A stretch of 40,542 bases of DNA from Candidatus Altimarinota bacterium (GTDB lineage Bacteria; Patescibacteriota; Gracilibacteria; UBA4473). Under the pieces are notes generated by a model. That model saw only the letters and a list, made by a program, of their open reading frames with translations, was not told where the DNA came from and ran no database searches. The position numbers and the translations under genes were made by a program. Below, in pieces: positions 7,573-18,886 of this stretch (position 1 is the stretch's first letter; every line of letters starts with the position of its first letter). The stretch lies in the NCBI GenBank assembly GCA_020629095.1, contig JAHDDZ010000001.1:1-40542 (forward strand), in the 5' to 3' direction.

Positions 7573-8604
7573 ATGGCAAACTACTATGATGACTTGGGCG
7601 TTGGCAAAAATGCGACCGAAAGTGAGATCAAAAAAGCATATCGCGCAAAGGCAAAACAGCATCACCCAGATAAAGGGGGGAATGAGGCTGACTTTAAGAA
7701 GATAAATGAGGCGTATGAGGTGCTAGGAAATACACAGAAAAAGGCGCAATATGATCAATTTGGAACAACTGGAAATGCTTCTGGTGGCGGCATGAATTAT
7801 GATTTTTCGGGAGGAGGATTTGGCGGATTTGAAGACATTTTTTCAAATATCTTTTCAGGTGGATTTGGTGGGCAGCAGCCCCGAAAGCAGCAAACTCGCG
7901 GAAGAGATTTGGAGACGACAATTCGCATTAGCTTTACTGATAGCTTAATGGGGGCGCGGCAGAGTTTAAACGCGCATACATTTGTGGCGTGTGGCACATG
8001 TGACGCTGCCGGAGGCAGTGACAAAACAGCCTGCGCGACGTGTGGCGGCAGGGGCTCTGTGACCCAAAAAATGCAAACGCCGTTGGGGGCTTTTCAGCAG
8101 CAAGTGCCGTGTCAAAGCTGCCGAGGGGAGGGGGTTTCATTTGCAAAAAAGTGCGCAAAGTGCGCTGGAGAGGGGCGAGTAAAAGAGCGCAGAACAGTTG
8201 AGGTAGAAGTGCCAGAAGGGGTGGAACATGGTCAAACGTTGCGGCTTGGTGGGCAGGGCGAGGCTGGCCGGCGTGGTGCACAGGCTGGAGACCTGTATGT
8301 GACGATTGAGGTGGCGCCGAGTAGTGAGTGGAAGCGCAAGGGGCTTGACCTCATTTCGCGTTTGCAGGTGCCAGTTTTTGAGGCGCTTTCTGGCGGTGTT
8401 TTCTCTGTTAAGACCTTTTGGGGAAATGTAGATATTACGGTTCCGGAACTGACAAAAGAGGGTACGCTGTTGCGGTTAAAAGGCAAAGGAGTGAAGTCAA
8501 GCGGTCGTGCCGGAGACCACTATGTGGAGGTTGAGTATGTGATGCCAAAACGAGTCAATACCAAGCTAAAAAAACTGCTTTCAGATGCAGCAAAAATGGC
8601 TTAA
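7573..8604 (+). CDS. dnaJ: Molecular chaperone DnaJ
   Basis: The J-domain reads YYDDLGV...HHPDKGG (HPD motif). A G/F-rich linker follows. Four CxxCxG-type zinc motifs are present (CGTCDAAGG, CATCGGRG, CQSCRGEG, CAKCAGEG). I chose the ATG at 7573 (MANYYDDLGV). Confidence 0.95.
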   Translation: MANYYDDLGVGKNATESEIKKAYRAKAKQHHPDKGGNEADFKKINEAYEVLGNTQKKAQYDQFGTTGNASGGGMNYDFSGGGFGGFEDIFSNIFSGGFGGQQPRKQQTRGRDLETTIRISFTDSLMGARQSLNAHTFVACGTCDAAGGSDKTACATCGGRGSVTQKMQTPLGAFQQQVPCQSCRGEGVSFAKKCAKCAGEGRVKERRTVEVEVPEGVEHGQTLRLGGQGEAGRRGAQAGDLYVTIEVAPSSEWKRKGLDLISRLQVPVFEALSGGVFSVKTFWGNVDITVPELTKEGTLLRLKGKGVKSSGRAGDHYVEVEYVMPKRVNTKLKKLLSDAAKMA

Positions 8605-8605
8605 A

Positions 8606-9649
8606 TTAGGCACGAAATTGGGCATGAGCACTTGCCAAATCATGGCTCGTAATGGCACATAAAAGCGATAATTCGGCACACAAAACGCCAGCTCCAATCA
8701 CCATTGCCAGCTCGTCTGCTGCTTTCCCAGTGCCATTTTTTTGAGTCAGCCCAATGGCCTGTAGCCACTTGTTTTGTGTTGGAAGCCTTGTTCCACCGCC
8801 CACTGTGCCGACCAGTATGCATGGCATTTCAATCGTTATTTTAATTCCAGTATCTGTCTGCTGCAGGATGGTCGTGCCAGTTGCGCCATCTGCTATGTGC
8901 GATGGGTCTTGACCAGTAGCAATGAAAACTCCGGCTAGGATATTTGCATGGTGCGCATTTTGGCCAATAGCCTTAGCCAGTCGTGAACCACTTTTGAGCT
9001 TAGCCTCAGAGACTATTAGCAGTTCCTTTGGGGTCGTTTTCAGTACCTCTGACAGCACTTTTATGCTGATCTCTGCACTTGTTTTTATCATGCGCCCACG
9101 GCCGCTTGTGGCATTTCGCAGGCTGGCTTTTTTGTCACTGCACAGGTTTCCGCTCGTCGCAATCAACGTGCCTCCCCATTCTGGGACCAGCAGCTCATCA
9201 CAGATTCGTTTTGCGCTAATTGTAGCCATATTCATGCCCATCGCATCGGCCGTGTCAAACTTCATTTCAACGTGCACAAATTCATCATCTGTTAGTACTT
9301 TTGCCCCGAGCCATTGTGTGTGTAAGCTTGTTTGTTTGATGCATTTTTGAACTGCATCTGCATTTTCTCTAAACCAATTTTCATACCATTCTTGAGACTT
9401 TTTATTTTTAATTTTAAATACTGGTGCACGTGTAATTCCAACTCGTTGTATAGATGAAATAGCCCCACCACAAAGGCTAATTGCTTTTGCGCCGCGGTTG
9501 GCAGATGCAACTAAACAGGCCTCTGTGGTCGCGATCGGCAGAGCATATTTGTTCCCATTTACTTGCATTTCTTTGACCAGCCCAACGGGCAGCTCAACCA
9601 CACCAGATATATTTTCGCAGTTTTGTTCGTATGCGCTCAAATCGCTCAT
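8606..9649 (-). CDS. Class I-type HMG-CoA reductase, minimal catalytic domain
   Basis: Motifs seen: ENISGVVELPVG, TTEACLVAS, DAMGMNM, GTVGGGT and a C-terminal His (SAHAQF). I chose the ATG at 9649 because it forms an ATGA overlap with the upstream stop. An alternative ATG lies at 9676. Confidence 0.88.
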   Translation of the reverse strand: MSDLSAYEQNCENISGVVELPVGLVKEMQVNGNKYALPIATTEACLVASANRGAKAISLCGGAISSIQRVGITRAPVFKIKNKKSQEWYENWFRENADAVQKCIKQTSLHTQWLGAKVLTDDEFVHVEMKFDTADAMGMNMATISAKRICDELLVPEWGGTLIATSGNLCSDKKASLRNATSGRGRMIKTSAEISIKVLSEVLKTTPKELLIVSEAKLKSGSRLAKAIGQNAHHANILAGVFIATGQDPSHIADGATGTTILQQTDTGIKITIEMPCILVGTVGGGTRLPTQNKWLQAIGLTQKNGTGKAADELAMVIGAGVLCAELSLLCAITSHDLASAHAQFRA

Positions 9650-10263
9650 GCTGGCATTATACGCGTCGGCACGCAATTGTCACCCGCAAGCCACTTTTGC
9701 AGCACATTTGGTACCCCGTGAGAGATGTGCACAATGGCCCCCATGGCGGCGCAAGATCTTGCTGCAGCCACCTTTGCAGCGATTCCGCCAGTAGCATCAT
9801 GATTTTTTCTTGCAAAAGAAATGTTATTTTGCAGTTCTGCAATTGGCTTCTTTTCAGTATCAAATAAGCATGCATCGCTTAAAAAAAGAACCCGCTGCGG
9901 CTGAAGCCGTTTGCACAGATGTACCATAACTGCGTCTGATCCAGTTACCTCTTTGGGCTCAATTACCCCACGAGTGAGTTGTCCAGTGGCTGATTTGTCA
10001 TATCGCACAGAGGGTAAATCAAGACCGCATTTTGCGGCTGTTTGCTGAATTTTGCGAGTTAGCTCCACCATATTTTTGTGGCCGACTTCTCTATCATTTT
10101 GCAGCAAAGGCGGGTGCCCCCAGCTACCACCTCCATGCAGAATTATTCCCTTGAAATTACTTGCCGCCAGAACCATAAAAATCCCTTCTAACGCCGCTTC
10201 GTCGTAACTTTTTTCAACCATTTTATCACTAAAAATACTGCCTCCAATTTTAATAATATCCAT
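9646..10263 (-). CDS. ipk: Isopentenyl phosphate kinase (amino-acid-kinase fold)
   Basis: Motifs seen: IKIGGSIFSDK, ILHGGGSWGHP (the IPK His motif), LFLSDACLFD and DATGGIAAKV. The ATG at 10263 overlaps the upstream TGA by 1 nt (TGATG). An alternative TTG lies at 10266. Confidence 0.78.
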   Translation of the reverse strand: MDIIKIGGSIFSDKMVEKSYDEAALEGIFMVLAASNFKGIILHGGGSWGHPPLLQNDREVGHKNMVELTRKIQQTAAKCGLDLPSVRYDKSATGQLTRGVIEPKEVTGSDAVMVHLCKRLQPQRVLFLSDACLFDTEKKPIAELQNNISFARKNHDATGGIAAKVAAARSCAAMGAIVHISHGVPNVLQKWLAGDNCVPTRIMPA

Positions 10264-11243
10264 CAAAAAAGGTGCTGATTTGTTGCAGTTGCTCCCTTTC
10301 CAATTGGCGAGCTGATAATTTTTTCTATACCATCTATTTTGGCTATCGCACTTTCAACAATTTTTTTGTTTTTTACAGGTGTTAAAACGTGCACCGTGCT
10401 GCCAGCATCAAGCGTCCAAGTCACTGAAATGCCATCTTTTTGTAGGTCATAAACAGCGGCAATGATGGCTCCTGTTGTTTGATTTGTATAATTTAAAGAC
10501 GGATTACCGCTCATCATAACGGCATGGAGGGCAAGTGCCTGAGATTCTGAAATGGCGAGAAAAGCACTAAAATCTTGTTGAGAAATAGCGTGCTGAAGTT
10601 GCCTTATTTGTGCCTCACTCATTGTGATTCGGGCTTTTTGCAACGGGCTTTTTGCAGCAAAATCATGCCCTTCGAGCGAGCCAATCTGTTTTGGTTTTGT
10701 GTCTGAAACGGCAATAATATCAACCAAATTCCATTCATTTTCACCTGCTATTTTTTCTGTTTTTCCAGTTTGGAAAAGTGCCCCCCAGCCATCATGAGCA
10801 CTTCTTAGGGCAGAACCACTTCCGGCGATATGCATTAGGTCAATATGCTGCATTGGAGCGATCAGAATAGCGCTGCAAGCCGCGTACCATAGGGCACAAA
10901 CCCCAGACGCAGAAGACGCAATTCCGGCACTCATGGGGAAGTTAAGCTGGCTTTTGGCTTTCCATTTATGGGTTATTTCAGCAGTTTTAGCGATGGCATT
11001 TACCATATCAAAAATCATTTGTGCACGTGCTGAACTAGTTGGGTCAAGCTGTACCTCTTCTCCTGTTTCGAGCTCTATTGTTAATGTATTCTCATCGTAG
11101 TCAGCATCAAAACAAATTGTTGTATGCGCGGTGCAGGAGGCTAAATTCATGCTCAAACTCGGGCTGGCCGGTAGTCGGCCCTGCGCATGGCCCCAGTGCT
11201 TAATGATAGCAATATTGGCCGGAGCAATTGCGCTAGCTTTCAT
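10263..11243 (-). CDS. Mevalonate diphosphate/phosphate decarboxylase homolog (GHMP family)
   Basis: APANIAIIKHWG corresponds to APVNIA.IKYWGK in known enzymes. NFPMSAGIASSASG, GSGSALRS and TLDAGST also match. I chose the ATG at 11243 (ATGA overlap with the idi stop); the track ORF starts at 11273. Confidence 0.85.
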   Translation of the reverse strand: MKASAIAPANIAIIKHWGHAQGRLPASPSLSMNLASCTAHTTICFDADYDENTLTIELETGEEVQLDPTSSARAQMIFDMVNAIAKTAEITHKWKAKSQLNFPMSAGIASSASGVCALWYAACSAILIAPMQHIDLMHIAGSGSALRSAHDGWGALFQTGKTEKIAGENEWNLVDIIAVSDTKPKQIGSLEGHDFAAKSPLQKARITMSEAQIRQLQHAISQQDFSAFLAISESQALALHAVMMSGNPSLNYTNQTTGAIIAAVYDLQKDGISVTWTLDAGSTVHVLTPVKNKKIVESAIAKIDGIEKIISSPIGKGATATNQHLF

Positions 11244-11800
11244 ACTTTTTGCTGATTTATATTTTCTTTCCACCAGTCGCTAAAGGCTTTATTGTGGTGC
11301 AATAAAAGTACTTCCTCTCGGCACCATGGGCTCAGGTGACTCCATTCTATCATCCTATTTTGCAGCAAATTGTTCCAATTTACCCACTGCGTTTTTGCCA
11401 CTTCGTCTGCATTTGGCTTGGGGGCATCTGACAAAGTTCCAACCCAAATTGGGCACCATTCGTGCTCCATGACTTCATCCATAGTGGCCCTATAACTATA
11501 GTTTGGCACCATCTCAATTATGCTTTTTGGTGAAACCCCAAGCTCAAATTGAGCTCTTCGCGTAACGGCATCAGTCATTTTTTCACCAGGTAGCGGGTGC
11601 CCACAAACTGAGTTGCTCCATACGCCAGGCCACGTTTTCTTGCTATGAGATCGTTGTTGCAGCAATAGTTTGCCGTCTGGAGAAAATAAAAAGCAAGAGA
11701 AAGCTTTATGCAGAGGCGTTTTTGAGCTATGAACAGTGGCTTTTAAGGTTGTGCCAATTTCATTCCAATTAGCATCGAGCAGGATGACTTCTTCGTTCAT
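11240..11800 (-). CDS. idi: Type 1 isopentenyl-diphosphate delta-isomerase (Nudix fold)
   Basis: Motifs seen: LHKAFSCFLF, LLLQQRSHSKKTWPGVWSNSVCGHP and EHEWCPIW. Length is 186 aa. Confidence 0.9.
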   Translation of the reverse strand: MNEEVILLDANWNEIGTTLKATVHSSKTPLHKAFSCFLFSPDGKLLLQQRSHSKKTWPGVWSNSVCGHPLPGEKMTDAVTRRAQFELGVSPKSIIEMVPNYSYRATMDEVMEHEWCPIWVGTLSDAPKPNADEVAKTQWVNWNNLLQNRMIEWSHLSPWCREEVLLLHHNKAFSDWWKENINQQKV

Positions 11801-12654
11801 AGGCTGATTATACTCGATAGGTGTGCCACGGCCAGTGGCCCAAAAAAGTACCAGAAGGCAATCATTCCCATAAGGGTGTTTATGACGGGAAGTCTCTTGT
11901 AGACAGCAAAAAGAGTGGAATTACTTTTCCAGCTTGTAAAAATAATAGTTGTATAGACTCCCATTCCAAGGATTCCTGCGAGTAGAGAATATTGCAGAGT
12001 AATCGCAAAAGTCGTCATCCATAAGGCCCACACATACATAAGCGTTCTGTGCTTGCCAAGAGTAGTAGCTGTAGTAGAAAGGCCCGCTTTCGTATCAGCG
12101 GGGATGTCTGGAATAGCACTATATGCATGCATTCCCACCATCATCGACCAAATTCCCACAAATGCAACCCAGTCTGACGGTTCAGTTGAAATAGACCAAT
12201 ATCCTATGAGTGCTGGGCAAGTATACAACACATTGCTAACCGAGTCAAGAAATGGCCGTGCCTTCAGTCGAACTGGCGGAAGAGAGTAGCTGAGTGACAA
12301 AATAAGCCAGCCCGCCCATGCCACCTGCGCAGCTATTGGAGTAATCAGCAGTAGTGGTACAACTGGCAGATGTAAGAGTAAGATCCACCACACCAATGGG
12401 CGCGTTTTACTGCTTTTGTGGCGGTTTTCATATCCATCTTTTTTTGCATTCAGTGCGTCTGTGTCTCGATCACTTATGTCATTTATGCCATATACTAGTA
12501 GATTTGCCGGCAGGGTAAAATATGCCAACCAAAGCCAAAAAGTGGGCGTCCAGAAGTCACCAACAGACTCTGCTCCGGCCGCCCAGCCTACGGCAAATGT
12601 CCCGGCTAAATACCCCCAAAACCGTGGCCGACTGGTCCTCAAAATCCATTTCAT
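11797..12654 (-). CDS. UbiA-family aromatic/polyprenyl prenyltransferase, possibly lycopene-elongase-like
   Basis: The protein is polytopic. It starts with SRPRFWGYLAG. The first Asp-rich motif is YGINDISDRDTDALNAKK and the second is AIPDIPADTKAGLSTTATTLG. It sits directly after crtB and crtI. The family call is firm; the substrate call is an inference. Confidence 0.75.
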   Translation of the reverse strand: MKWILRTSRPRFWGYLAGTFAVGWAAGAESVGDFWTPTFWLWLAYFTLPANLLVYGINDISDRDTDALNAKKDGYENRHKSSKTRPLVWWILLLHLPVVPLLLITPIAAQVAWAGWLILSLSYSLPPVRLKARPFLDSVSNVLYTCPALIGYWSISTEPSDWVAFVGIWSMMVGMHAYSAIPDIPADTKAGLSTTATTLGKHRTLMYVWALWMTTFAITLQYSLLAGILGMGVYTTIIFTSWKSNSTLFAVYKRLPVINTLMGMIAFWYFFGPLAVAHLSSIISL

Positions 12655-14168
12655 GAGAGATCAGTTAATGATGTGAGCATACTACCAGATCGGTCATTTA
12701 TGATGTATTTATAGGCCAATTGACTGCTGAGTAAGCTAATTGGCACTCCGATGCCGGGGTTTGTGCCAGCCCCTGTATACAGCAAATTTTCCACTTTTTT
12801 GCTTTTGGCAGGGGGTCTAAAACATGCCGTTTGCCTCAGTGTATGGGCCAATCCAAGCGCACTCCCACCATATGCGTTATATCTGTCTTTGAAGTCGCTG
12901 ATACTAAAACTTCGCTGAAACACAATTCGCTCGCGGAGGTTTTTTATCGGAAACTTTTCCTCCATATGCGCCAAAACGCGGTCGATTTCACGTGCCCTGG
13001 TGGCATCATCATCGAGTAATTTGGGACTTATTGGCACCAGTACAAATAGGTTTTCATGTCCATCTGGGGCAGTTTCTGGCTCAGTCTTGCTCGGGGCACA
13101 TACATACAAACTTGGCTCAGTTGGATATTTTGGGTTGATAAAAAGTTCATCAAAACCGCCTTTCCAGTCATCTGCAAAAATGAGATTATGGTGGACCAAA
13201 TGATCGCATTTCCCCTTTACCCCAAGATATAAAATGAGTCCACTGGGCGCCCATTTGCGCTTTTTCCAATACGGTTTTGAGTAGGTTCTATGCCGCTTTT
13301 TAGTTATCAGTTGTGTTTCTGTGAAGGCATAATCGGCATTGCTAATGACGATATCAGCATGCATTTCAGTTCCGTTTTGCAGCCGCACGCCCACCGCCTT
13401 TTTGTCTTCTATTAAAATCTCCGCCACTTCTGTGTTCAGCCGTATGTCTGCTCCGTGTTTTTTTGCAATGCCCGCAAACGACTTCATGACCGCGTGCAGA
13501 CCCCCTTTAGGGTACCACACCCCCATGTTGAAATCAATATGACTCATGAGGCTATAGATCGCAGGAGCATCATATGGTGAGGTGCCCAAGAATACCATTG
13601 CGTACTGCAAAATCCGCTGTATATGAGAGTTTTTTGTATATTTTTCTACGTGCTTTGCGAAGCTCGAAAAGACCCCCAGCTCCATTCCCATGCGGGCTGT
13701 GCGCAGGTTTATCAGATCAAAAATACTCTCATAATTCTTGCACATAAAATCACTCTTACTGATTTCATATTTCGTTTTTGCCTTCTCTAAGTACGCCAAA
13801 AGTCGTGGTGTGACACCTTTTTCAAATGCCTCAAAAGTAGGCAAATCTTTCTTCAAGTCACTAAAAATCGTAGTTGGGGGCGTCAGATCATTATTCCCCC
13901 ACCATATTTTATAGGCGGGATCAAGCTGTGTCAGCTCCAGCTGTTCCTCTACCTTTTCACCTAGCAGTGCATAAAAATCTGCAAATAAATCTGGCATTAA
14001 ATACCAACTGGGTCCCATATCAAAACGAAACCCATCAGCCTCGAAAAAACCTCCACGACCGCCTACGCACTCATTTTTTTCCACCACTGTCACCTGCGCC
14101 CCAGATCTTGCCAGTAAGGCTGCAGCTCCAAGCCCTCCGATGCCACTGCCGATAATTATTGTTTTCAT
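12651..14168 (-). CDS. crtI: Phytoene (or diapophytoene) desaturase, CrtI family
   Basis: The FAD motif reads IIIGSGIGGLGAAALLARSG..VVEKN..GGR. The C-terminus has YTGAGTNPGIGVP. I chose the ATG at 14168 (MKTIIIGSG), which forms an ATGA overlap with the crtB stop. The track ORF starts at 14198. Confidence 0.85.
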   Translation of the reverse strand: MKTIIIGSGIGGLGAAALLARSGAQVTVVEKNECVGGRGGFFEADGFRFDMGPSWYLMPDLFADFYALLGEKVEEQLELTQLDPAYKIWWGNNDLTPPTTIFSDLKKDLPTFEAFEKGVTPRLLAYLEKAKTKYEISKSDFMCKNYESIFDLINLRTARMGMELGVFSSFAKHVEKYTKNSHIQRILQYAMVFLGTSPYDAPAIYSLMSHIDFNMGVWYPKGGLHAVMKSFAGIAKKHGADIRLNTEVAEILIEDKKAVGVRLQNGTEMHADIVISNADYAFTETQLITKKRHRTYSKPYWKKRKWAPSGLILYLGVKGKCDHLVHHNLIFADDWKGGFDELFINPKYPTEPSLYVCAPSKTEPETAPDGHENLFVLVPISPKLLDDDATRAREIDRVLAHMEEKFPIKNLRERIVFQRSFSISDFKDRYNAYGGSALGLAHTLRQTACFRPPAKSKKVENLLYTGAGTNPGIGVPISLLSSQLAYKYIINDRSGSMLTSLTDLS

Positions 14169-15013
14169 GAAAAAAGGGCTAATCGGAGTTTTTGCCACTT
14201 GCTAAGCGAATAATTGCTGTGGTGCACATGGTACTCAGACTGCTCAATTTTGTCTAAATATGCCGAATAAAGCTGGCTCGCGGCTCGAACAGCCCACCGC
14301 CCACGAGGGTGCAATTTCTCTATTGCAGGGGCTGCTTCCGCATATAATTTTCTGGCACGTGCAGCCTGGAATTGCATAAAATCTGCCCATCCTTTTGGAT
14401 ATTCTTTTTTTGCAATATGTGCCTCCGTTATACCCCATTTTGCCATTTCGTCAGCCGGTAAATAAATTCGCCCGAGGTCAAAATAATCCTCTGAAATATC
14501 TCGTAAAAAATTTGTGAGTTGCATGGCATATCCCAGTTTTGCAGCCGCATTAAGTGTTTCTTTATCTGGAGGAGATCTATCTGCCATGCCAATGGCGTAG
14601 GTCATGAGCACGCCCACCGCGGCAGCAGATCCGTCCATATATGTACACAGATCGCTATAATTTGCATATCGATTTTTATGGGTGTCCATGCGCATTGCGG
14701 CCAAAAAAGAACTAGCGTGTTTTGGTGGCACTTTTAGCTCTTGGTGCAAACCTGCAGCTGCCAGGAGCACGGGGTGCGTTGTTGAGTCCACTCCTATTTG
14801 CGCCTTTTCCCATGCAGCCTCCCAGGCGCTCAGGGACTGTTTTTTGTTTTGTATTTCAGGGCTATCCACTATGTCATCTGGCAATCGAAAAAAGGCATAG
14901 ATGATGTAGGTACGGTCACGAAGCCACTTTGGAAATAGACGCGTTGCACTTGCGTAGGTTGGTCCACGATTGTGCATTATGGCTTTACAAAAGGCAATAT
15001 CATGCTTTTTCAT
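14165..15013 (-). CDS. crtB: Phytoene/squalene synthase family enzyme (CrtB/CrtM type)
   Basis: Asp-rich motifs FFRLPDDIVDS and NFLRDISEDY are present, plus YMDGSAAAVG. Length is 282 aa. Confidence 0.85.
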   Translation of the reverse strand: MKKHDIAFCKAIMHNRGPTYASATRLFPKWLRDRTYIIYAFFRLPDDIVDSPEIQNKKQSLSAWEAAWEKAQIGVDSTTHPVLLAAAGLHQELKVPPKHASSFLAAMRMDTHKNRYANYSDLCTYMDGSAAAVGVLMTYAIGMADRSPPDKETLNAAAKLGYAMQLTNFLRDISEDYFDLGRIYLPADEMAKWGITEAHIAKKEYPKGWADFMQFQAARARKLYAEAAPAIEKLHPRGRWAVRAASQLYSAYLDKIEQSEYHVHHSNYSLSKWQKLRLALFS

Positions 15014-15948
15014 GCGGTTCGATTCATTAAAAAGTGAAGCAAATCAAAGAGCGAGTTATGCTGTTTTTCACTCAGAGGGCAATTCTTTAGAAGTGTTAAA
15101 GCTGTTTCATGGTGCTTTTGTGCTACTTCTTGGGTGGCGGCATATGCGCCTATTTCGGCATAAAATGCATGAATTTGCTCTATGTTTTTTGTATCTAAAA
15201 TGGCTTTGTGCTTCTCTGGTTTTTGTATTTGTGCATAGGCTGTATAGTGCGTTGCCTTTCCCTCCATGATATCATTAAGCACAGGTTTTCCCACTTCCTC
15301 ACTGTCAGACTGGGTGTCTAGCAGGTCATCCATCAACTGAAATGCCGTTCCCACAGCAGTGCCCCATGCCTCTGCCCAAGCCAGTTGTTGATTCGTTGTT
15401 TTAGTGGCCATAAGGCCCAACTGTAAAGGGCGTGTCACAGAGTATGTTGCTGTCTTTAAATAGGTTTTTTGCAGCACATTCTCCATGCTGCTTTGCGGTG
15501 TTAATTGGGCATCGAGCACTTGTCCAGAGAGGACTTCGCGCTGAAGTGCGCTCCATGTTTTTTGCGCAGCTTCATGGGGGTTTGTTTTTGAAAAATACTC
15601 ATGAGAGAGCATCAGCAGCCAGTCACCAGACAGCAAAGCAAGGTCATTTCCAACCTCTGTATGAACCGTTTTGCTTCCTCGCCGCAGGGGGGAATTGTCC
15701 ATGATATCATCATGTACTAAGGCAAATCCATGCAACAGCTCAAGTGCAATTTGTAGGTTATTTCTAGAAAAATCATCTGCGCCAATGGCCGCAAGATATG
15801 GACGAATACGTTTCCCTCCACGGAGAACTAAATCAGCTGCAGGGGCAAATGCAACCTTGGCAGAGTCATGCGGTAATGCCAAAAGGCTATCAGAAAGGGC
15901 ATCTTTAAGGGTTTTTTGAAAGATATTTGCGTATGGAATTATTTTCAT
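15010..15948 (-). CDS. Polyprenyl diphosphate synthase (GGPP/FPP synthase type)
   Basis: The first Asp-rich motif is LVHDDIMDNSPLRRG and the second is FQLMDDLLD. I chose the ATG at 15948 (MKIIPYANIF, 312 aa) because it forms an ATGA overlap with the preceding small gene. The track ORF extends to 16104. Confidence 0.85.
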   Translation of the reverse strand: MKIIPYANIFQKTLKDALSDSLLALPHDSAKVAFAPAADLVLRGGKRIRPYLAAIGADDFSRNNLQIALELLHGFALVHDDIMDNSPLRRGSKTVHTEVGNDLALLSGDWLLMLSHEYFSKTNPHEAAQKTWSALQREVLSGQVLDAQLTPQSSMENVLQKTYLKTATYSVTRPLQLGLMATKTTNQQLAWAEAWGTAVGTAFQLMDDLLDTQSDSEEVGKPVLNDIMEGKATHYTAYAQIQKPEKHKAILDTKNIEQIHAFYAEIGAYAATQEVAQKHHETALTLLKNCPLSEKQHNSLFDLLHFLMNRTA

Positions 15949-16205
15949 AAAAGTGGCATCAAGGCAGGGGCATGGACTATTCTTCCATCTGGCAGTATAT
16001 TTTTTCGCATCATAATAATCTTCACTCTTTGTCCTTCCGCGCATGTATATCCTGGCATGATTGGAAAAATATGCTTTTTGGCTTCCAATTGAGTCAATGC
16101 CCAAGTACCACTATTTGAGGTCGTCACATGCAAAATGGTTCCACTCTTGCCTATAAACGCTTTATCTTTTTGCCACAAACGGTTTTGCTGCGTAGGGGAT
16201 ATCAT
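15945..16205 (-). CDS. Small DUF35/OB-fold acyl-CoA-associated protein homolog (86 aa, no zinc ribbon)
   Basis: This is the C-terminal 86 aa of track ORF 15945..16364, starting at the ATG at 16205. That ATG forms an ATGA overlap with the thiolase stop. The sequence is MISPTQQNRLWQKDKAFIGKSGTILHVTTSNSGTWALTQLEAKKHIFPIMPGYTCAEGQRVKIIMMRKNILPDGRIVHAPALMPLL. It has the G.G.v...T / v.L.e / iG..V pattern of the DUF35 OB domain. Its position after HMGCS and thiolase matches the archaeal gene order. Confidence 0.5.
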   Translation of the reverse strand: MISPTQQNRLWQKDKAFIGKSGTILHVTTSNSGTWALTQLEAKKHIFPIMPGYTCAEGQRVKIIMMRKNILPDGRIVHAPALMPLL

Positions 16206-17308
16206 GCTTTTTTGACTATGTGAATAACAACGGTTCCGCCGGTTCCCCCCACATTGTGTGCCAGACCTGTTTTGACTCGGTCTGTTTGGTTTCTGGCAAG
16301 GGTTATAAGCTGTCGCACGCCGGTTGCGCCAACCGGGTGCCCAAAAGCTTTTAACCCTCCCCATGGGTTTATAATTATTTCAGATTCTCTTTGTAGCATT
16401 GTCTCTAAAAGTGAATGCGCTTGCCCTCTTTTTGCTAGCCCGAGGTCCTCCACTGCAAGAGAAAGTGATATAGAAAAACAGTCATGCAAGCAGTATTGGT
16501 CAATATCAGAAATGCTTATTTCAGCCTGATTTAGGGCATTAGCGAGAACCATGCTTGTTGTCAAAATCTGTGTTAAATCTGCCCGATTTGAAAGCCCTGG
16601 AGGACCACTTTTGGTGGCACTGGCAGTGATTTGTGTGGAGGACTTTTTGGCACTCAGCACAAGGGCGGCGGCACCATCTGTGATGGGGGCTGCGTGTAGC
16701 AGTCGCATGGGGCTGCTCACCATCTGGCTTGATTCAATTTGTTTATTTGAGAAGTTTTTATGAAACTGCGCCAAAGTATTTTCAGTTGCCTGGCGGTGCA
16801 TCAGTTGCATTCCAGGGCTAAAAACTGTTGCATCGTGCCCATGCTTTTTCATATAGGCCTGTGCGATGAGGGCATAGAGACCACCAAAAGTGATGCCGGT
16901 TGAGCTCTCCGCCTCAGTTGTCGCTCCCATCAGCGCTTGGTTGACGGTTGCACTAGAGTGATCTGTCATTTTTTCTGTGCCGATGACAAGAGCATTTGTA
17001 GCAAATCCAGCAAAGACATCCTTCCATCCTAAATGCACAGCAATACCACCAGAAGCGCAAGCGGCCTCCGTTCTGATACAAGCTGCAGAAATGCCCAACT
17101 TTTCTGCAATAATAGCACCTAGGTGTCCTTGCTCATCAAGGGCAATTCCGAGCATATTTCCAACATAGAGCACATCAATATCAGCGGGACTAATACCACT
17201 TTCAGAGAGCGCTTCAGCTCCCGCGAACACCCCCAAGTCAACCGCGGAAAGGCCATCATGCCGCCCAAATTTTGTGCATCCAGTTCCGTTTATAAAGACA
17301 GAATTCAT
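16202..17308 (-). CDS. Archaeal-type acetyl-CoA acetyltransferase (thiolase)
   Basis: The start reads INGTGCTKFGRH. The catalytic Cys context is TEAACASGG. The C-terminus has HPVGATG and NVGGTGG. Length is 368 aa. Confidence 0.9.
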   Translation of the reverse strand: MNSVFINGTGCTKFGRHDGLSAVDLGVFAGAEALSESGISPADIDVLYVGNMLGIALDEQGHLGAIIAEKLGISAACIRTEAACASGGIAVHLGWKDVFAGFATNALVIGTEKMTDHSSATVNQALMGATTEAESSTGITFGGLYALIAQAYMKKHGHDATVFSPGMQLMHRQATENTLAQFHKNFSNKQIESSQMVSSPMRLLHAAPITDGAAALVLSAKKSSTQITASATKSGPPGLSNRADLTQILTTSMVLANALNQAEISISDIDQYCLHDCFSISLSLAVEDLGLAKRGQAHSLLETMLQRESEIIINPWGGLKAFGHPVGATGVRQLITLARNQTDRVKTGLAHNVGGTGGTVVIHIVKKA

Positions 17309-18306
17309 GAAAGTGGGCGGTTTATTTCATTATATGCTTGTGCGTCAAGCACCTGCATGGCGGCTATCTGTTCTCGAATAGGCATTGTTTTACACCCACT
17401 TTCAGCTTTTTTTGTGACCACAAATGCATCAGCCCCAGCCCCAGAGCCGTAACTGCAGCAAAGGATTTTGTCTCCAATTTTTGCTTCATCAAGGGCAGCG
17501 CAAAGCCCCAAAGGTATACAGGCTGCATAGGTATTTCCAATCAGCGGAACCAGCCACCCAGCAGCTAATTGTGCTCTTGTTATCACCATTTTTTGTGCTA
17601 CTTTGAGGGGGAGTTTTGCGTTTGGCTGGTGCAAGATTACATGCGCATAATCTGCTATTTTGCTTTGTGTTTCATTCAGCAATAACTGCAGTGCGCCGCA
17701 CACAACCTCTATGTAGGTCTCATTGCTATGCGCCCCAGCATGGATTGGATGATCTGCCTTGTTACTGCGCCAAAAGTCTAGTCTATGAACTGAATAGCTC
17801 TGCCAAGATTCTATGGTGGCAATAGGCGTTTTACCCACTAAAAAAGCGGCAGCACCTGCCCCAGCCGTGTAGTGCAGTGGGTCCCCAACTTTGCCAGTTG
17901 CACAGTCCGAGGCAACCGCAATTCCACTTTGGCTGCGGCCTGTCGCTACATGGCACAGGGCCATGTCGAGTGCGACGGTTCCGGCTTTGCAGGCAAATTC
18001 AACATCAGCCGTTTGGCAGTTTGTATCCATGCCAATTCCATCGACAATCATACTGCTAGTTGGGTTTACTGCATAGAGGGGCGTTTCGCTCCCGAAAAAA
18101 AGACATCCGGCTTTCTGTGTCGTTAGGCTACTTGCGGCTCGCAACCCAAGTGTCAAACTGTCAGTCGCCGTGCCTGGAATAGATTTTTGTGAAACACCCA
18201 GCCCAGCGTACAGCGTTTTTGGCTGCCCGGCTAACTCCGCAAGCAGTTCTTGTTGTGCACAAAAACCAGGAATCGCCACCCCATATTCTTGTATTCCAAT
18301 TGCCAT
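17305..18306 (-). CDS. Archaeal-type HMG-CoA synthase
   Basis: VEFACKAGT holds the catalytic Cys. LHQPN and IGNTYAAC are also present. Length is 333 aa. Confidence 0.88.
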   Translation of the reverse strand: MAIGIQEYGVAIPGFCAQQELLAELAGQPKTLYAGLGVSQKSIPGTATDSLTLGLRAASSLTTQKAGCLFFGSETPLYAVNPTSSMIVDGIGMDTNCQTADVEFACKAGTVALDMALCHVATGRSQSGIAVASDCATGKVGDPLHYTAGAGAAAFLVGKTPIATIESWQSYSVHRLDFWRSNKADHPIHAGAHSNETYIEVVCGALQLLLNETQSKIADYAHVILHQPNAKLPLKVAQKMVITRAQLAAGWLVPLIGNTYAACIPLGLCAALDEAKIGDKILCCSYGSGAGADAFVVTKKAESGCKTMPIREQIAAMQVLDAQAYNEINRPLS

Positions 18307-18833
18307 TACACCAAAAAGTGCACAAGCGTGTTGTCTGCTGTCAGCTGCGCTTTTGAAAAAGCAAATTCCCCCTCGTGTTTTGTTGCGCCAGATTCGGCCT
18401 GCACAGTCGGCATCAGCGCACCATCACCACAAATAAGTGCGACCGCAGGGCTAATTTTATCAATCAATTCATCCACTTTTTTGGCATCAAAATCCTTGCC
18501 TACCGCAATAATTGCCACCGCAATATTTTCTCCTACCTCCTCTAGCATCGCAGCATTTGGCACGGCGGTCAGTTGACCAAAGTGGCAAATGGTCCCATCA
18601 GCAGATGTGACCTTATAAATAGTATTTTTTTCACTCGAAGAAACGCCCTTTAGTAAAATATTCCCAATTTCAAATTCACCTGGAAGAAATATATTTCGCC
18701 CGCCTCCAGTAGTATTTTCAGCTCGGTCATGCCATGTTGTTAAAACAGAATCGCCAGTTGCAGCACTCATTCCGACAACTCCCTCTGTGCACGTCACAAC
18801 AAATCCGAAATCATCTTTTGCCATTATTTTCAT
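18306..18833 (-). CDS. MBL-fold (Lactamase_B_3-like) protein with degenerate metal-binding motifs
   Basis: MKIMAKDD...LPGEFEIGNILLKGVS..KNTIYKVTSADGTICHFGQL..LEEVGENIAVAIIAVGKD...ALICGD follows the layout of small MBL-fold hydrolases (PGEYE..G, N.iy.ie.dG..i.H.GDLG, PVGG, PMHY). The HxHxDH and later His/Asp positions are replaced. I chose the ATG at 18833; the track ORF starts at 18881 and would overlap the holA start. Confidence 0.4.
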   Translation of the reverse strand: MKIMAKDDFGFVVTCTEGVVGMSAATGDSVLTTWHDRAENTTGGGRNIFLPGEFEIGNILLKGVSSSEKNTIYKVTSADGTICHFGQLTAVPNAAMLEEVGENIAVAIIAVGKDFDAKKVDELIDKISPAVALICGDGALMPTVQAESGATKHEGEFAFSKAQLTADNTLVHFLV

Positions 18834-18857: not shown

Positions 18858-18886
18858 ACTATAGTCGACCCTCCACCACATGGCAA
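18858..18886 (-). promoter_or_regulatory. Candidate promoter for the 12-gene isoprenoid operon
   Basis: On the minus strand: TTGCCA (18886->18881), a 17-nt spacer, then TATAGT (18863->18858). The -10 lies 24 nt upstream of the ATG at 18833. Confidence 0.4.

Follow-up and report, generated by a model that had tools for sequence, protein, structure and literature searches.

The window analyzed here, 40,542 nucleotides that make up contig JAHDDZ010000001.1 (C31) of assembly GCA_020629095.1 from a Candidatus Altimarinota bacterium (phylum Patescibacteriota), carries on its minus strand four contiguous, intact genes that occupy exactly positions 11797-15948 and encode a short-chain trans-isoprenyl diphosphate synthase (IDS), a CrtB-type synthase, a CrtI-family desaturase and a UbiA-family prenyltransferase. 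We consider it likely that these genes comprise a bacterioruberin-type (LyeJ-type) acyclic carotenoid cassette that was inserted into, and is co-transcribed with, an archaeal-type mevalonate operon. This assignment draws on the family scores of the encoded proteins, on gene order conserved across several phyla, and on a relative that possesses the same type of operon without the cassette. An earlier note on this DNA, made from the sequence alone, had placed a prenyl synthase, CrtB, CrtI and UbiA side by side in this interval; four open reading frames (ORFs), each with a Pfam match, lie exactly there, and the strings quoted from the UbiA protein (SRPRFW, NDISDRDTDALNAKK and IPDIPADTKAGLSTTATTLG) are all found in its translation. 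The four genes are linked through ATGA start/stop overlaps and are as follows.

11797..12654, minus strand: UbiA prenyltransferase of LyeJ type (predicted lycopene elongase/1,2-hydratase), 285 amino acids; NF009516, Pfam UbiA, E 1e-18
12651..14168, minus strand: CrtI-family desaturase, predicted bifunctional phytoene desaturase/3,4-desaturase (CrtI/CrtD, "CrtID"), 505 amino acids; Pfam Amino_oxidase, E 7e-37
14165..15013, minus strand: predicted phytoene synthase CrtB (C40), 282 amino acids; Pfam SQS_PSY, E 6e-65, 220 bits
15010..15948, minus strand: short-chain trans-prenyl diphosphate synthase (IDS, in the CrtE role), predicted to make geranylgeranyl diphosphate (GGPP, C20), 312 amino acids; Pfam polyprenyl_synt, E 2e-49

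The UbiA-family enzyme and its partners

The UbiA-family protein scores 257.5 bits against the NCBIfam model NF009516 (PRK12875), above the family cut-off of 205. What this model stands for was gauged by tblastn of the protein against a plasmid collection, where the best matches, 40% identical across 93% of its length, were "prenyltransferase" genes of Halocatena salina and Halarchaeum sp.; these are flanked by a crtI-family gene and cruF, have crtB close by, and thus occupy the position of haloarchaeal lyeJ. Their two products, encoded inside crtD-lyeJ-cruF clusters, reach 426 and 397 bits, respectively. Against the CrtEb-type model NF009608 (PRK13105), the window protein scores 105 bits (cut-off 217) vs 470 for a CrtEb-like protein of Arthrobacter, which argues for a LyeJ-type rather than a CrtEb-type enzyme. 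Thus, of the CrtEb/LyeJ-type lycopene elongase proposed in the earlier note, the LyeJ part is borne out and the CrtEb part is not. A quinone, heme or ether-lipid prenyltransferase, the alternative named there, is disfavored by the scores of 20 bits for MenA (TIGR00751, cut-off 102), 23 bits for the digeranylgeranylglyceryl phosphate synthase (DGGGPS)-like model PRK12884 (cut-off 269) and 33 bits for homogentisate phytyltransferase, and by phmmer comparison with a reference set, in which the protein matched LyeJ at 177 and 164 bits, the Arthrobacter CrtEb-like protein at 73 bits, and CyoE, MenA and UbiA of Escherichia coli, as well as the second UbiA of the host genome, at 5 bits or less.

Both Asp-rich Mg/diphosphate motifs (N58-D59-x2-D62-x3-D66 and D183-x3-D187) are invariant in an alignment of 20 sequences. 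The AlphaFold model (pLDDT, the predicted local distance difference test score, 92) has the UbiA fold, with a template modeling score of about 0.7 to Archaeoglobus AfUbiA (4tq3/4tq4), which was solved with dimethylallyl diphosphate (DMAPP) and Mg2+; the matches in the PDB include no LyeJ structure, the sole sequence match being the Archaeoglobus UbiA homolog 4tq3. In the maximum likelihood tree, the protein is one of 41 members of a clade (support 85/95, stem 2.5) that unites LyeJ, the CrtEb-like protein and all homologs from Acidobacteriota, Abditibacteriota and Patescibacteria. Together, these observations support its identification as a LyeJ-type lycopene elongase/hydratase, which is predicted to catalyze C5 addition and 1,2-hydration.

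The chemistry of the bacterial LyeJ-like enzymes might differ from that of their haloarchaeal counterparts, through elongation of one end only (C45), another regiochemistry or hydration alone, and would then give an acyclic C40 or C45 hydroxy-carotenoid in place of a C50 product. Room for this is left by the identity of only 40% to a LyeJ of the characterized type, by the long branch of the window protein (1.13), which has no fixed place in the tree, and by a literature without an assayed member from Acidobacteriota or the candidate phyla radiation (CPR). We nonetheless judge it improbable, in view of the score above the curated LyeJ-family cut-off and the retention of both catalytic motifs, the tight coupling of the UbiA gene to the gene for isopentenyl diphosphate (IPP):DMAPP isomerase (IDI), which fits the need for a DMAPP donor, and a partner desaturase of the type that performs 3,4-desaturation between the two elongations.

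The host genome contains a second UbiA-family gene (C29:227-997), the product of which scores 221 bits on TIGR01474 (cut-off 275), resembles 4-hydroxybenzoate polyprenyltransferase and groups with E. coli UbiA (97/94). Such a gene is odd in a CPR genome that lacks quinone synthesis and, because its contig is so short (1360 bases), may represent contamination of the bin.

The desaturase, the only CrtI-family gene in the assembly, has the CrtID model NF058655 as its best-scoring model (588 bits, with haloarchaeal C0507-type proteins at about 750) and passes the broader crtI_fam model TIGR02734 (474 bits, cut-off 238). It is 42% identical to the haloarchaeal crtD product encoded next to lyeJ, and, in the tree, groups with haloarchaeal CrtID, Arthrobacter CrtI and proteins of Acidobacteriota and CPR, with Pantoea CrtI, Streptomyces CrtI and Staphylococcus CrtN in a separate subclade and HpnE remote from all of these. 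Knock-out and complementation have demonstrated that haloarchaeal C0507, its closest relative, acts as both CrtI and CrtD (Yatsunami et al. 2024, PMC11946383), so that one copy can suffice. Given the single CrtI-family gene in this genome, the economical reading is a single desaturase doing both jobs, one that would work like CrtID without our claiming membership of that family.

CrtB carries the motifs DDIVD and DISED, is 36% identical to haloarchaeal CrtB and belongs to a starred clade (97/96) that includes the haloarchaeal and Streptomyces enzymes; outside this clade fall HpnC, HpnD and Staphylococcus CrtM, and also CrtB of Pantoea and Thermus. For the prenyl synthase, tblastn revealed no second trans-IDS in the assembly; its top NCBIfam models (encapsulin-cargo polyprenyl transferase at 157 bits, IdsA_Meth and GGPP_syn) are all below their cut-offs. 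In its first Asp-rich motif, LLHGFALVHDDIMD, the sequence DDIMD lacks the 2-residue insert that is present in E. coli IspA (DDLPAMD), with F at position -5 and A at position -4, a signature shared by the IDS of three other CPR clusters. According to the classification of Wang and Ohnuma, an aromatic residue at -5 and the absence of an insert in DDxxD reportedly define a type I (archaeal-type) GGPP synthase; the window protein has this signature, which predicts a C20 product. With the GGPP-type signature, the clade of CrtB and the type of desaturase all favoring C40 phytoene/lycopene as the substrate of the elongase, a C40 chain extended to C45/C50 appears most likely.

It is very improbable that the synthase and the desaturase instead form a squalene (HpnCDE-like) or C30 diapocarotenoid (CrtM/CrtN-like) pair that happens to adjoin an unrelated quinone, heme or ether-lipid UbiA enzyme. 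HpnD is indeed the top NCBIfam score of the SQS_PSY protein, but at 188 bits vs a cut-off of 278.6, with HpnC at 161 vs 250 and HpnE, for the desaturase, at 46 vs 283. Plasmid HpnD matches span no more than about 64% of the SQS_PSY protein, and there is one such gene here, whereas HpnC and HpnD are both needed for squalene. HpnC, HpnD, HpnE, CrtM and CrtN all fall outside the window clades in the trees, so that the HpnD/HpnE origin of the pair considered in the earlier note finds no backing, and the UbiA scores given above speak against the second half of this scenario. In its favor are approximately unbiased (AU) tests that forced the window UbiA beside E. coli UbiA, MenA or CyoE, none of which was rejected (p 0.35-0.57). 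We consider these tests powerless, because the outgroup branches are saturated, at 3–10 changes per site, and can attach anywhere, so that their outcome does not reflect affinity; the UbiA assignment accordingly depends on the HMM (hidden Markov model) and phmmer scores and on synteny, the tree being uninformative on quinone/heme affinity.

Beyond these non-rejections, several points weigh against the proposed LyeJ-type cassette. The UbiA tree does not resolve the position of the window protein within the LyeJ/CrtEb clade, the 85/95 support of which is not starred; the desaturase does not reach the CrtID equivalog cut-off (588 vs 640), and CrtB misses every NCBIfam equivalog cut-off. The genome is estimated to be only 73% complete, so that CruF or a second desaturase may have gone unassembled. 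The LyeJ-like clade has no characterized bacterial member outside Actinobacteria, nor has a pigment been measured in a CPR organism.

Operon layout, insertion site and distribution

The four genes belong to a minus-strand run of twelve that extends from about 18833 down to 8606, in the order MBL-HMGS-thiolase-DUF35-like-IDS-CrtB-CrtI-UbiA-IDI-MVD-like-IPK-HMGR, with the MBL-fold protein first and 3-hydroxy-3-methylglutaryl (HMG)-CoA reductase (HMGR) last. All 11 junctions overlap (nine ATGA, one TTGATG and one TAATG). The genes and sites that surround the cassette are listed below.

18858..18886, minus strand: promoter-like site upstream of the operon (TTGCCA-17-TATAGT, 10/12 matches), weak evidence
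18306..18833, minus strand: metallo-beta-lactamase (MBL)-fold protein, first cistron of the operon; Pfam Lactamase_B_3, E 8e-7; TAATG junction with the HMGS gene
17305-18306, minus strand: archaeal-type HMG-CoA synthase (HMGS); NF003274, 293 bits (cut-off 244)
16202-17308, minus strand: thiolase; NF004720, 318 bits (below the cut-off of this model)
15945..16205, minus strand: small DUF35-like gene that bounds the inserted cassette upstream; joined to both neighbors by ATGA overlaps
11240..11800, minus strand: type 1 IPP:DMAPP isomerase (IDI), predicted DMAPP donor supply; NF002995, 217 bits (cut-off 127)
10263-11243, minus strand: mevalonate diphosphate decarboxylase (MVD)-like decarboxylase; Pfam/NCBIfam matches, overlapping junctions
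9646-10266, minus strand: isopentenyl phosphate kinase (IPK); Pfam/NCBIfam matches, overlapping junctions
8606-9649, minus strand: HMGR; Pfam/NCBIfam matches, overlapping junctions
8574..8591, minus strand: terminator-like hairpin and T-run directly after the HMGR stop (sequence scan), weak evidence

Two starts were revised from the ORF list. The desaturase ORF was listed as 12651-14198, and its likely true start is the ATG at 14168, in an ATGA overlap with the crtB stop; the prenyl synthase starts at the ATG at 15948, also in an ATGA overlap, the listed 364-amino-acid ORF (TTG at 16104) over-running the upstream gene. The promoter-like and terminator-like sites are weak evidence because their counts in the region are about equal to those expected from shuffled sequence. 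The GC content of the cassette (0.44–0.46) is the same as that of its flanks and thus gives no compositional sign of recent acquisition, and no tRNA or Rfam element was detected within the window. The flanking genes are bacterial (EF-Tu, EF-G, DnaJ and DNA polymerase III delta) and include type IV secretion system (T4SS)-pilin and DUF4012 genes such as occur in CPR/Patescibacteria; together with an assembly of 760 kb in 86 contigs at the estimated completeness given above, they agree with the reduced genome recognized in the earlier note.

Among species-representative genomes, a pattern search yielded 426 relatives, of which the best 80 loci were analyzed. In about 75 of these, which span Acidobacteriota, Abditibacteriota, Armatimonadota and many Patescibacteria, UbiA homologs stand beside CrtI and CrtB, often with IDI, CruF and IDS. 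About 60 loci belong to Acidobacteriota and place the elongase beside IDI-CruF, with CrtI-CrtB in converging orientation; those of Patescibacteria have CruF-elongase with CrtI(-CrtB-IDS). A Peribacteria locus (L070) reads HMGS-thiolase-small ORF-IDS-CrtB-CrtI-elongase, an order identical to that of the window. That the homologs recur next to carotenoid genes and IDI, the presumed source of DMAPP, is the strongest argument for the predicted function. In L072:6001-8294 (Patescibacteria group bacterium), the gene that comes after a LyeJ homolog, on the same strand, is a divergent CrtI-family member, which is 30% identical to that of the window and groups with Staphylococcus CrtN and Pantoea CrtI and apart from the CrtID-like set; the locus yielded no CrtB and the genome no CruF. 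A genome of the same class as the host (G054, L092:4237-8456, 98% complete) has IDS-CrtB-CrtI with a converging LyeJ and no HMGR, IspH or CruF, that is, a carotenoid cluster without a detectable IPP route. In addition, two Acidobacteriota loci (L005:4673-5986 and L022:4454-5809, both minus strand) encode CruF and IDI in one open frame of about 440 amino acids, a possible fusion protein of Pyrinomonadaceae-type clusters.

Among close relatives, LyeJ is rare, being found in none of the 36 same-family genomes sampled and in 2 of the 24 from the same class. Across the phylum, 13 others among 400 evenly drawn species (~3%) are above the LyeJ family cut-off. Pigment genes, which the earlier note thought unexpected in such an organism, are therefore less of a surprise than they seemed, all the more as they were reported in this phylum in 2023 (PMC9948471). 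Markers of IPP synthesis are similarly uneven: among 60 relatives, 3 have HMGR, 20 have IspH of the methylerythritol phosphate (MEP) pathway and 37 have neither, and two genomes of the same genus (g16) differ in this respect, G015 with IspH and G031 with HMGR.

G031, a member of the same family as the host, assembled in a single 1.3-Mb contig, provides the empty site. Its operon reads HMGS-thiolase-DUF35-like-IDI-MVD-IPK ... HMGR, without IDS-CrtB-CrtI-LyeJ, and the 92-amino-acid small ORF between thiolase and IDI is homologous to the DUF35-like gene of the window (E 3e-8). Comparison with this operon places the cassette in an operon of a type that already existed, flanked by the DUF35-like gene and idi. 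The trees do not allow the donor group to be named. The MBL-fold gene is not found upstream of HMGS in G031.

Predicted pathway, end product and significance

In the pathway that we propose, acetyl-CoA would be converted to mevalonate by thiolase, HMGS with the DUF35-like protein, and HMGR, and mevalonate to IPP by the MVD-like decarboxylase and IPK, together with a candidate mevalonate kinase encoded outside the operon. IDI would then isomerize IPP to DMAPP, the type I prenyl synthase would make GGPP, CrtB would condense two GGPP to phytoene (C40), and the single CrtI/CrtD-type desaturase would take phytoene to lycopene. The LyeJ-type UbiA enzyme is predicted to transfer C5 from DMAPP onto C-2 of a lycopene end with 1,2 hydration, giving C45, and, after 3,4-desaturation by the same desaturase, to elongate the other end, giving C50. 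The pigment, expected to be red, would lie across the membrane, where it could add rigidity or act as an antioxidant or a photoprotectant. With HMGR present and no IspH in the host's own assembly, mevalonate is the only IPP route found. A GHMP-kinase homolog on another host contig (C70:13870-14607, minus strand), with 34% identity (E 7e-23) to a GHMP kinase that lies inside the G031 mevalonate cluster (L089:8853-9704, minus strand), is the candidate mevalonate kinase and would fill the "missing kinase" noted for 9646-11243.

Haloarchaeal CruF, the C50 carotenoid 2'',3''-hydratase, converts bisanhydrobacterioruberin (BABR) to bacterioruberin. No CruF was found in the assembly with Pfam PF04240 and tblastn with haloarchaeal CruF, nor with tblastn and a custom HMM based on CruF of CPR, Acidobacteriota and Abditibacterium. 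It is also absent genome-wide from five other LyeJ-bearing CPR genomes, namely G054, G050 (95% complete and, like G054, of the same class) and those of loci L070, L055 and L072, in a search in which three positive controls matched; hence, the variant without CruF is real and recurrent. The likely end product is thus not bacterioruberin but BABR, a C50 diol in which 13 double bonds are conjugated. BABR has the formula C50H72O2 (about 704.6 Da) and is listed in Table 3 of PMC11946383 with absorption maxima of about 467/490/521 nm.

Alternatively, the pathway could continue to bacterioruberin, a C50 tetraol, with cruF located in the ~27% of the genome that is not assembled. The estimated completeness allows for this, cruF is present in most Acidobacteriota and many CPR clusters, and it lies far from lyeJ in one Saccharibacteria genome (G456; likewise PMC9948471). 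However, three independent CruF searches of the assembly were negative, and the five LyeJ-bearing genomes without CruF include two nearly complete ones of the same class and a Peribacteria genome of the same order, so that we regard a bacterioruberin end point as unlikely and keep BABR as the likely product. A link to retinal and rhodopsin was also considered and rejected, as neither Bac_rhodopsin nor heliorhodopsin was matched in the assembly and no cyclase or cleavage gene was seen in the operon (ORF translations and Pfam); the heliorhodopsin result is a weak negative because that search had no positive control.

Nearly all lipids of CPR/Patescibacteria are believed to come from their hosts. 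If the proposed pathway holds, a self-supplied pigment that spans the membrane would count among the small number of lipids that these bacteria produce on their own, with a bearing on how membranes built from scavenged lipids are tuned or how they are protected from light and oxidants. What is specific to this locus is the combination of the cassette and the whole precursor pathway in one overlapping operon, the absence of CruF, and a relative with the empty site. The increment is modest, given that bacterioruberin-type genes in CPR were already published in 2023. Tentatively, and at somewhat less than even confidence, we go further and envisage a self-contained, translationally coupled operon of 12 genes that leads from acetyl-CoA to a C50 carotenoid in a host-dependent, ultra-small lipid scavenger; a recurrent lineage without CruF in which the pathway ends at BABR, so far known only as an intermediate, made here as a membrane-spanning "rivet"; and acquisition of the cassette by insertion, with the DUF35-like gene on one side and idi on the other, into a type of mevalonate operon that few members of the family possess. 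The locus offers a compact test object, with four genes, or twelve from acetyl-CoA, available as one block, and, with the empty site of G031 for comparison, it cleanly illustrates the insertion of a biosynthetic cassette into the operon of a precursor pathway.

Comparison with known systems

The closest characterized counterpart is the bacterioruberin cluster of Haloarcula japonica, crtI/crtD(c0507)-lyeJ(c0506)-cruF(c0505), as described by Yang et al. 2015 in the form cited in PMC11946383; clusters of this haloarchaeal type were found in Halocatena salina and Halarchaeum sp. CBA1220 (L083 and L084). The window resembles them in the order of desaturase followed by prenyltransferase, the adjacent crtB, a UbiA protein that passes NF009516 and is 40% identical, and a desaturase that is 42% identical, has CrtID as its best model and belongs to a type in which one bifunctional enzyme can serve both steps. 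Unlike the haloarchaeal cluster, it has no cruF, belongs to a bacterial host with a genome of about 1 Mb, encodes a desaturase just under the CrtID cut-off, and has its own predicted GGPP synthase, fused by start/stop overlaps into a mevalonate operon.

Within the same phylum, lyeJ, crtD and cruF have been described in Lake Baikal Patescibacteria, for which a membrane role in the cold was proposed (Haro-Moreno et al. 2023, PMC9948471). The predicted pigment class is the same, deduced from genomes in both cases, and the phylogeny is patchy and polyphyletic in both; in the Lake Baikal genomes, however, cruF is present and the genes are often unlinked, whereas the window holds one operon with the precursor pathway and without cruF. 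In Peribacteria, a near-complete mevalonate pathway "of uncertain purpose" was already known (PMC4736985). The actinobacterial C50 clusters for decaprenoxanthin and sarcinaxanthin, exemplified by idi-crtE-crtB-crtI-crtY-like-crtEb of Arthrobacter sp. StoSoilB13 (L093), likewise have a UbiA-family elongase after crtE-crtB-crtI and idi in the cluster. They differ in that CrtEb belongs to the NF009608 model and acts with C50 cyclase subunits to give cyclic C50 carotenoids, the window having no cyclase.

The closest relatives of the cassette are the clusters of Acidobacteriota (Pyrinomonadaceae and metagenome-assembled genomes of Blastocatellia, L003-L082). These differ in the presence of CruF, in their large, free-living genomes, in an elongase on the strand opposite to crtI-crtB, and in the absence of mevalonate genes; nevertheless, the identity reaches 40–46% for UbiA, about 50% for CrtI, about 40% for CrtB and about 44% for IDI, and IDI adjoins the elongase in these clusters as it does in the window.

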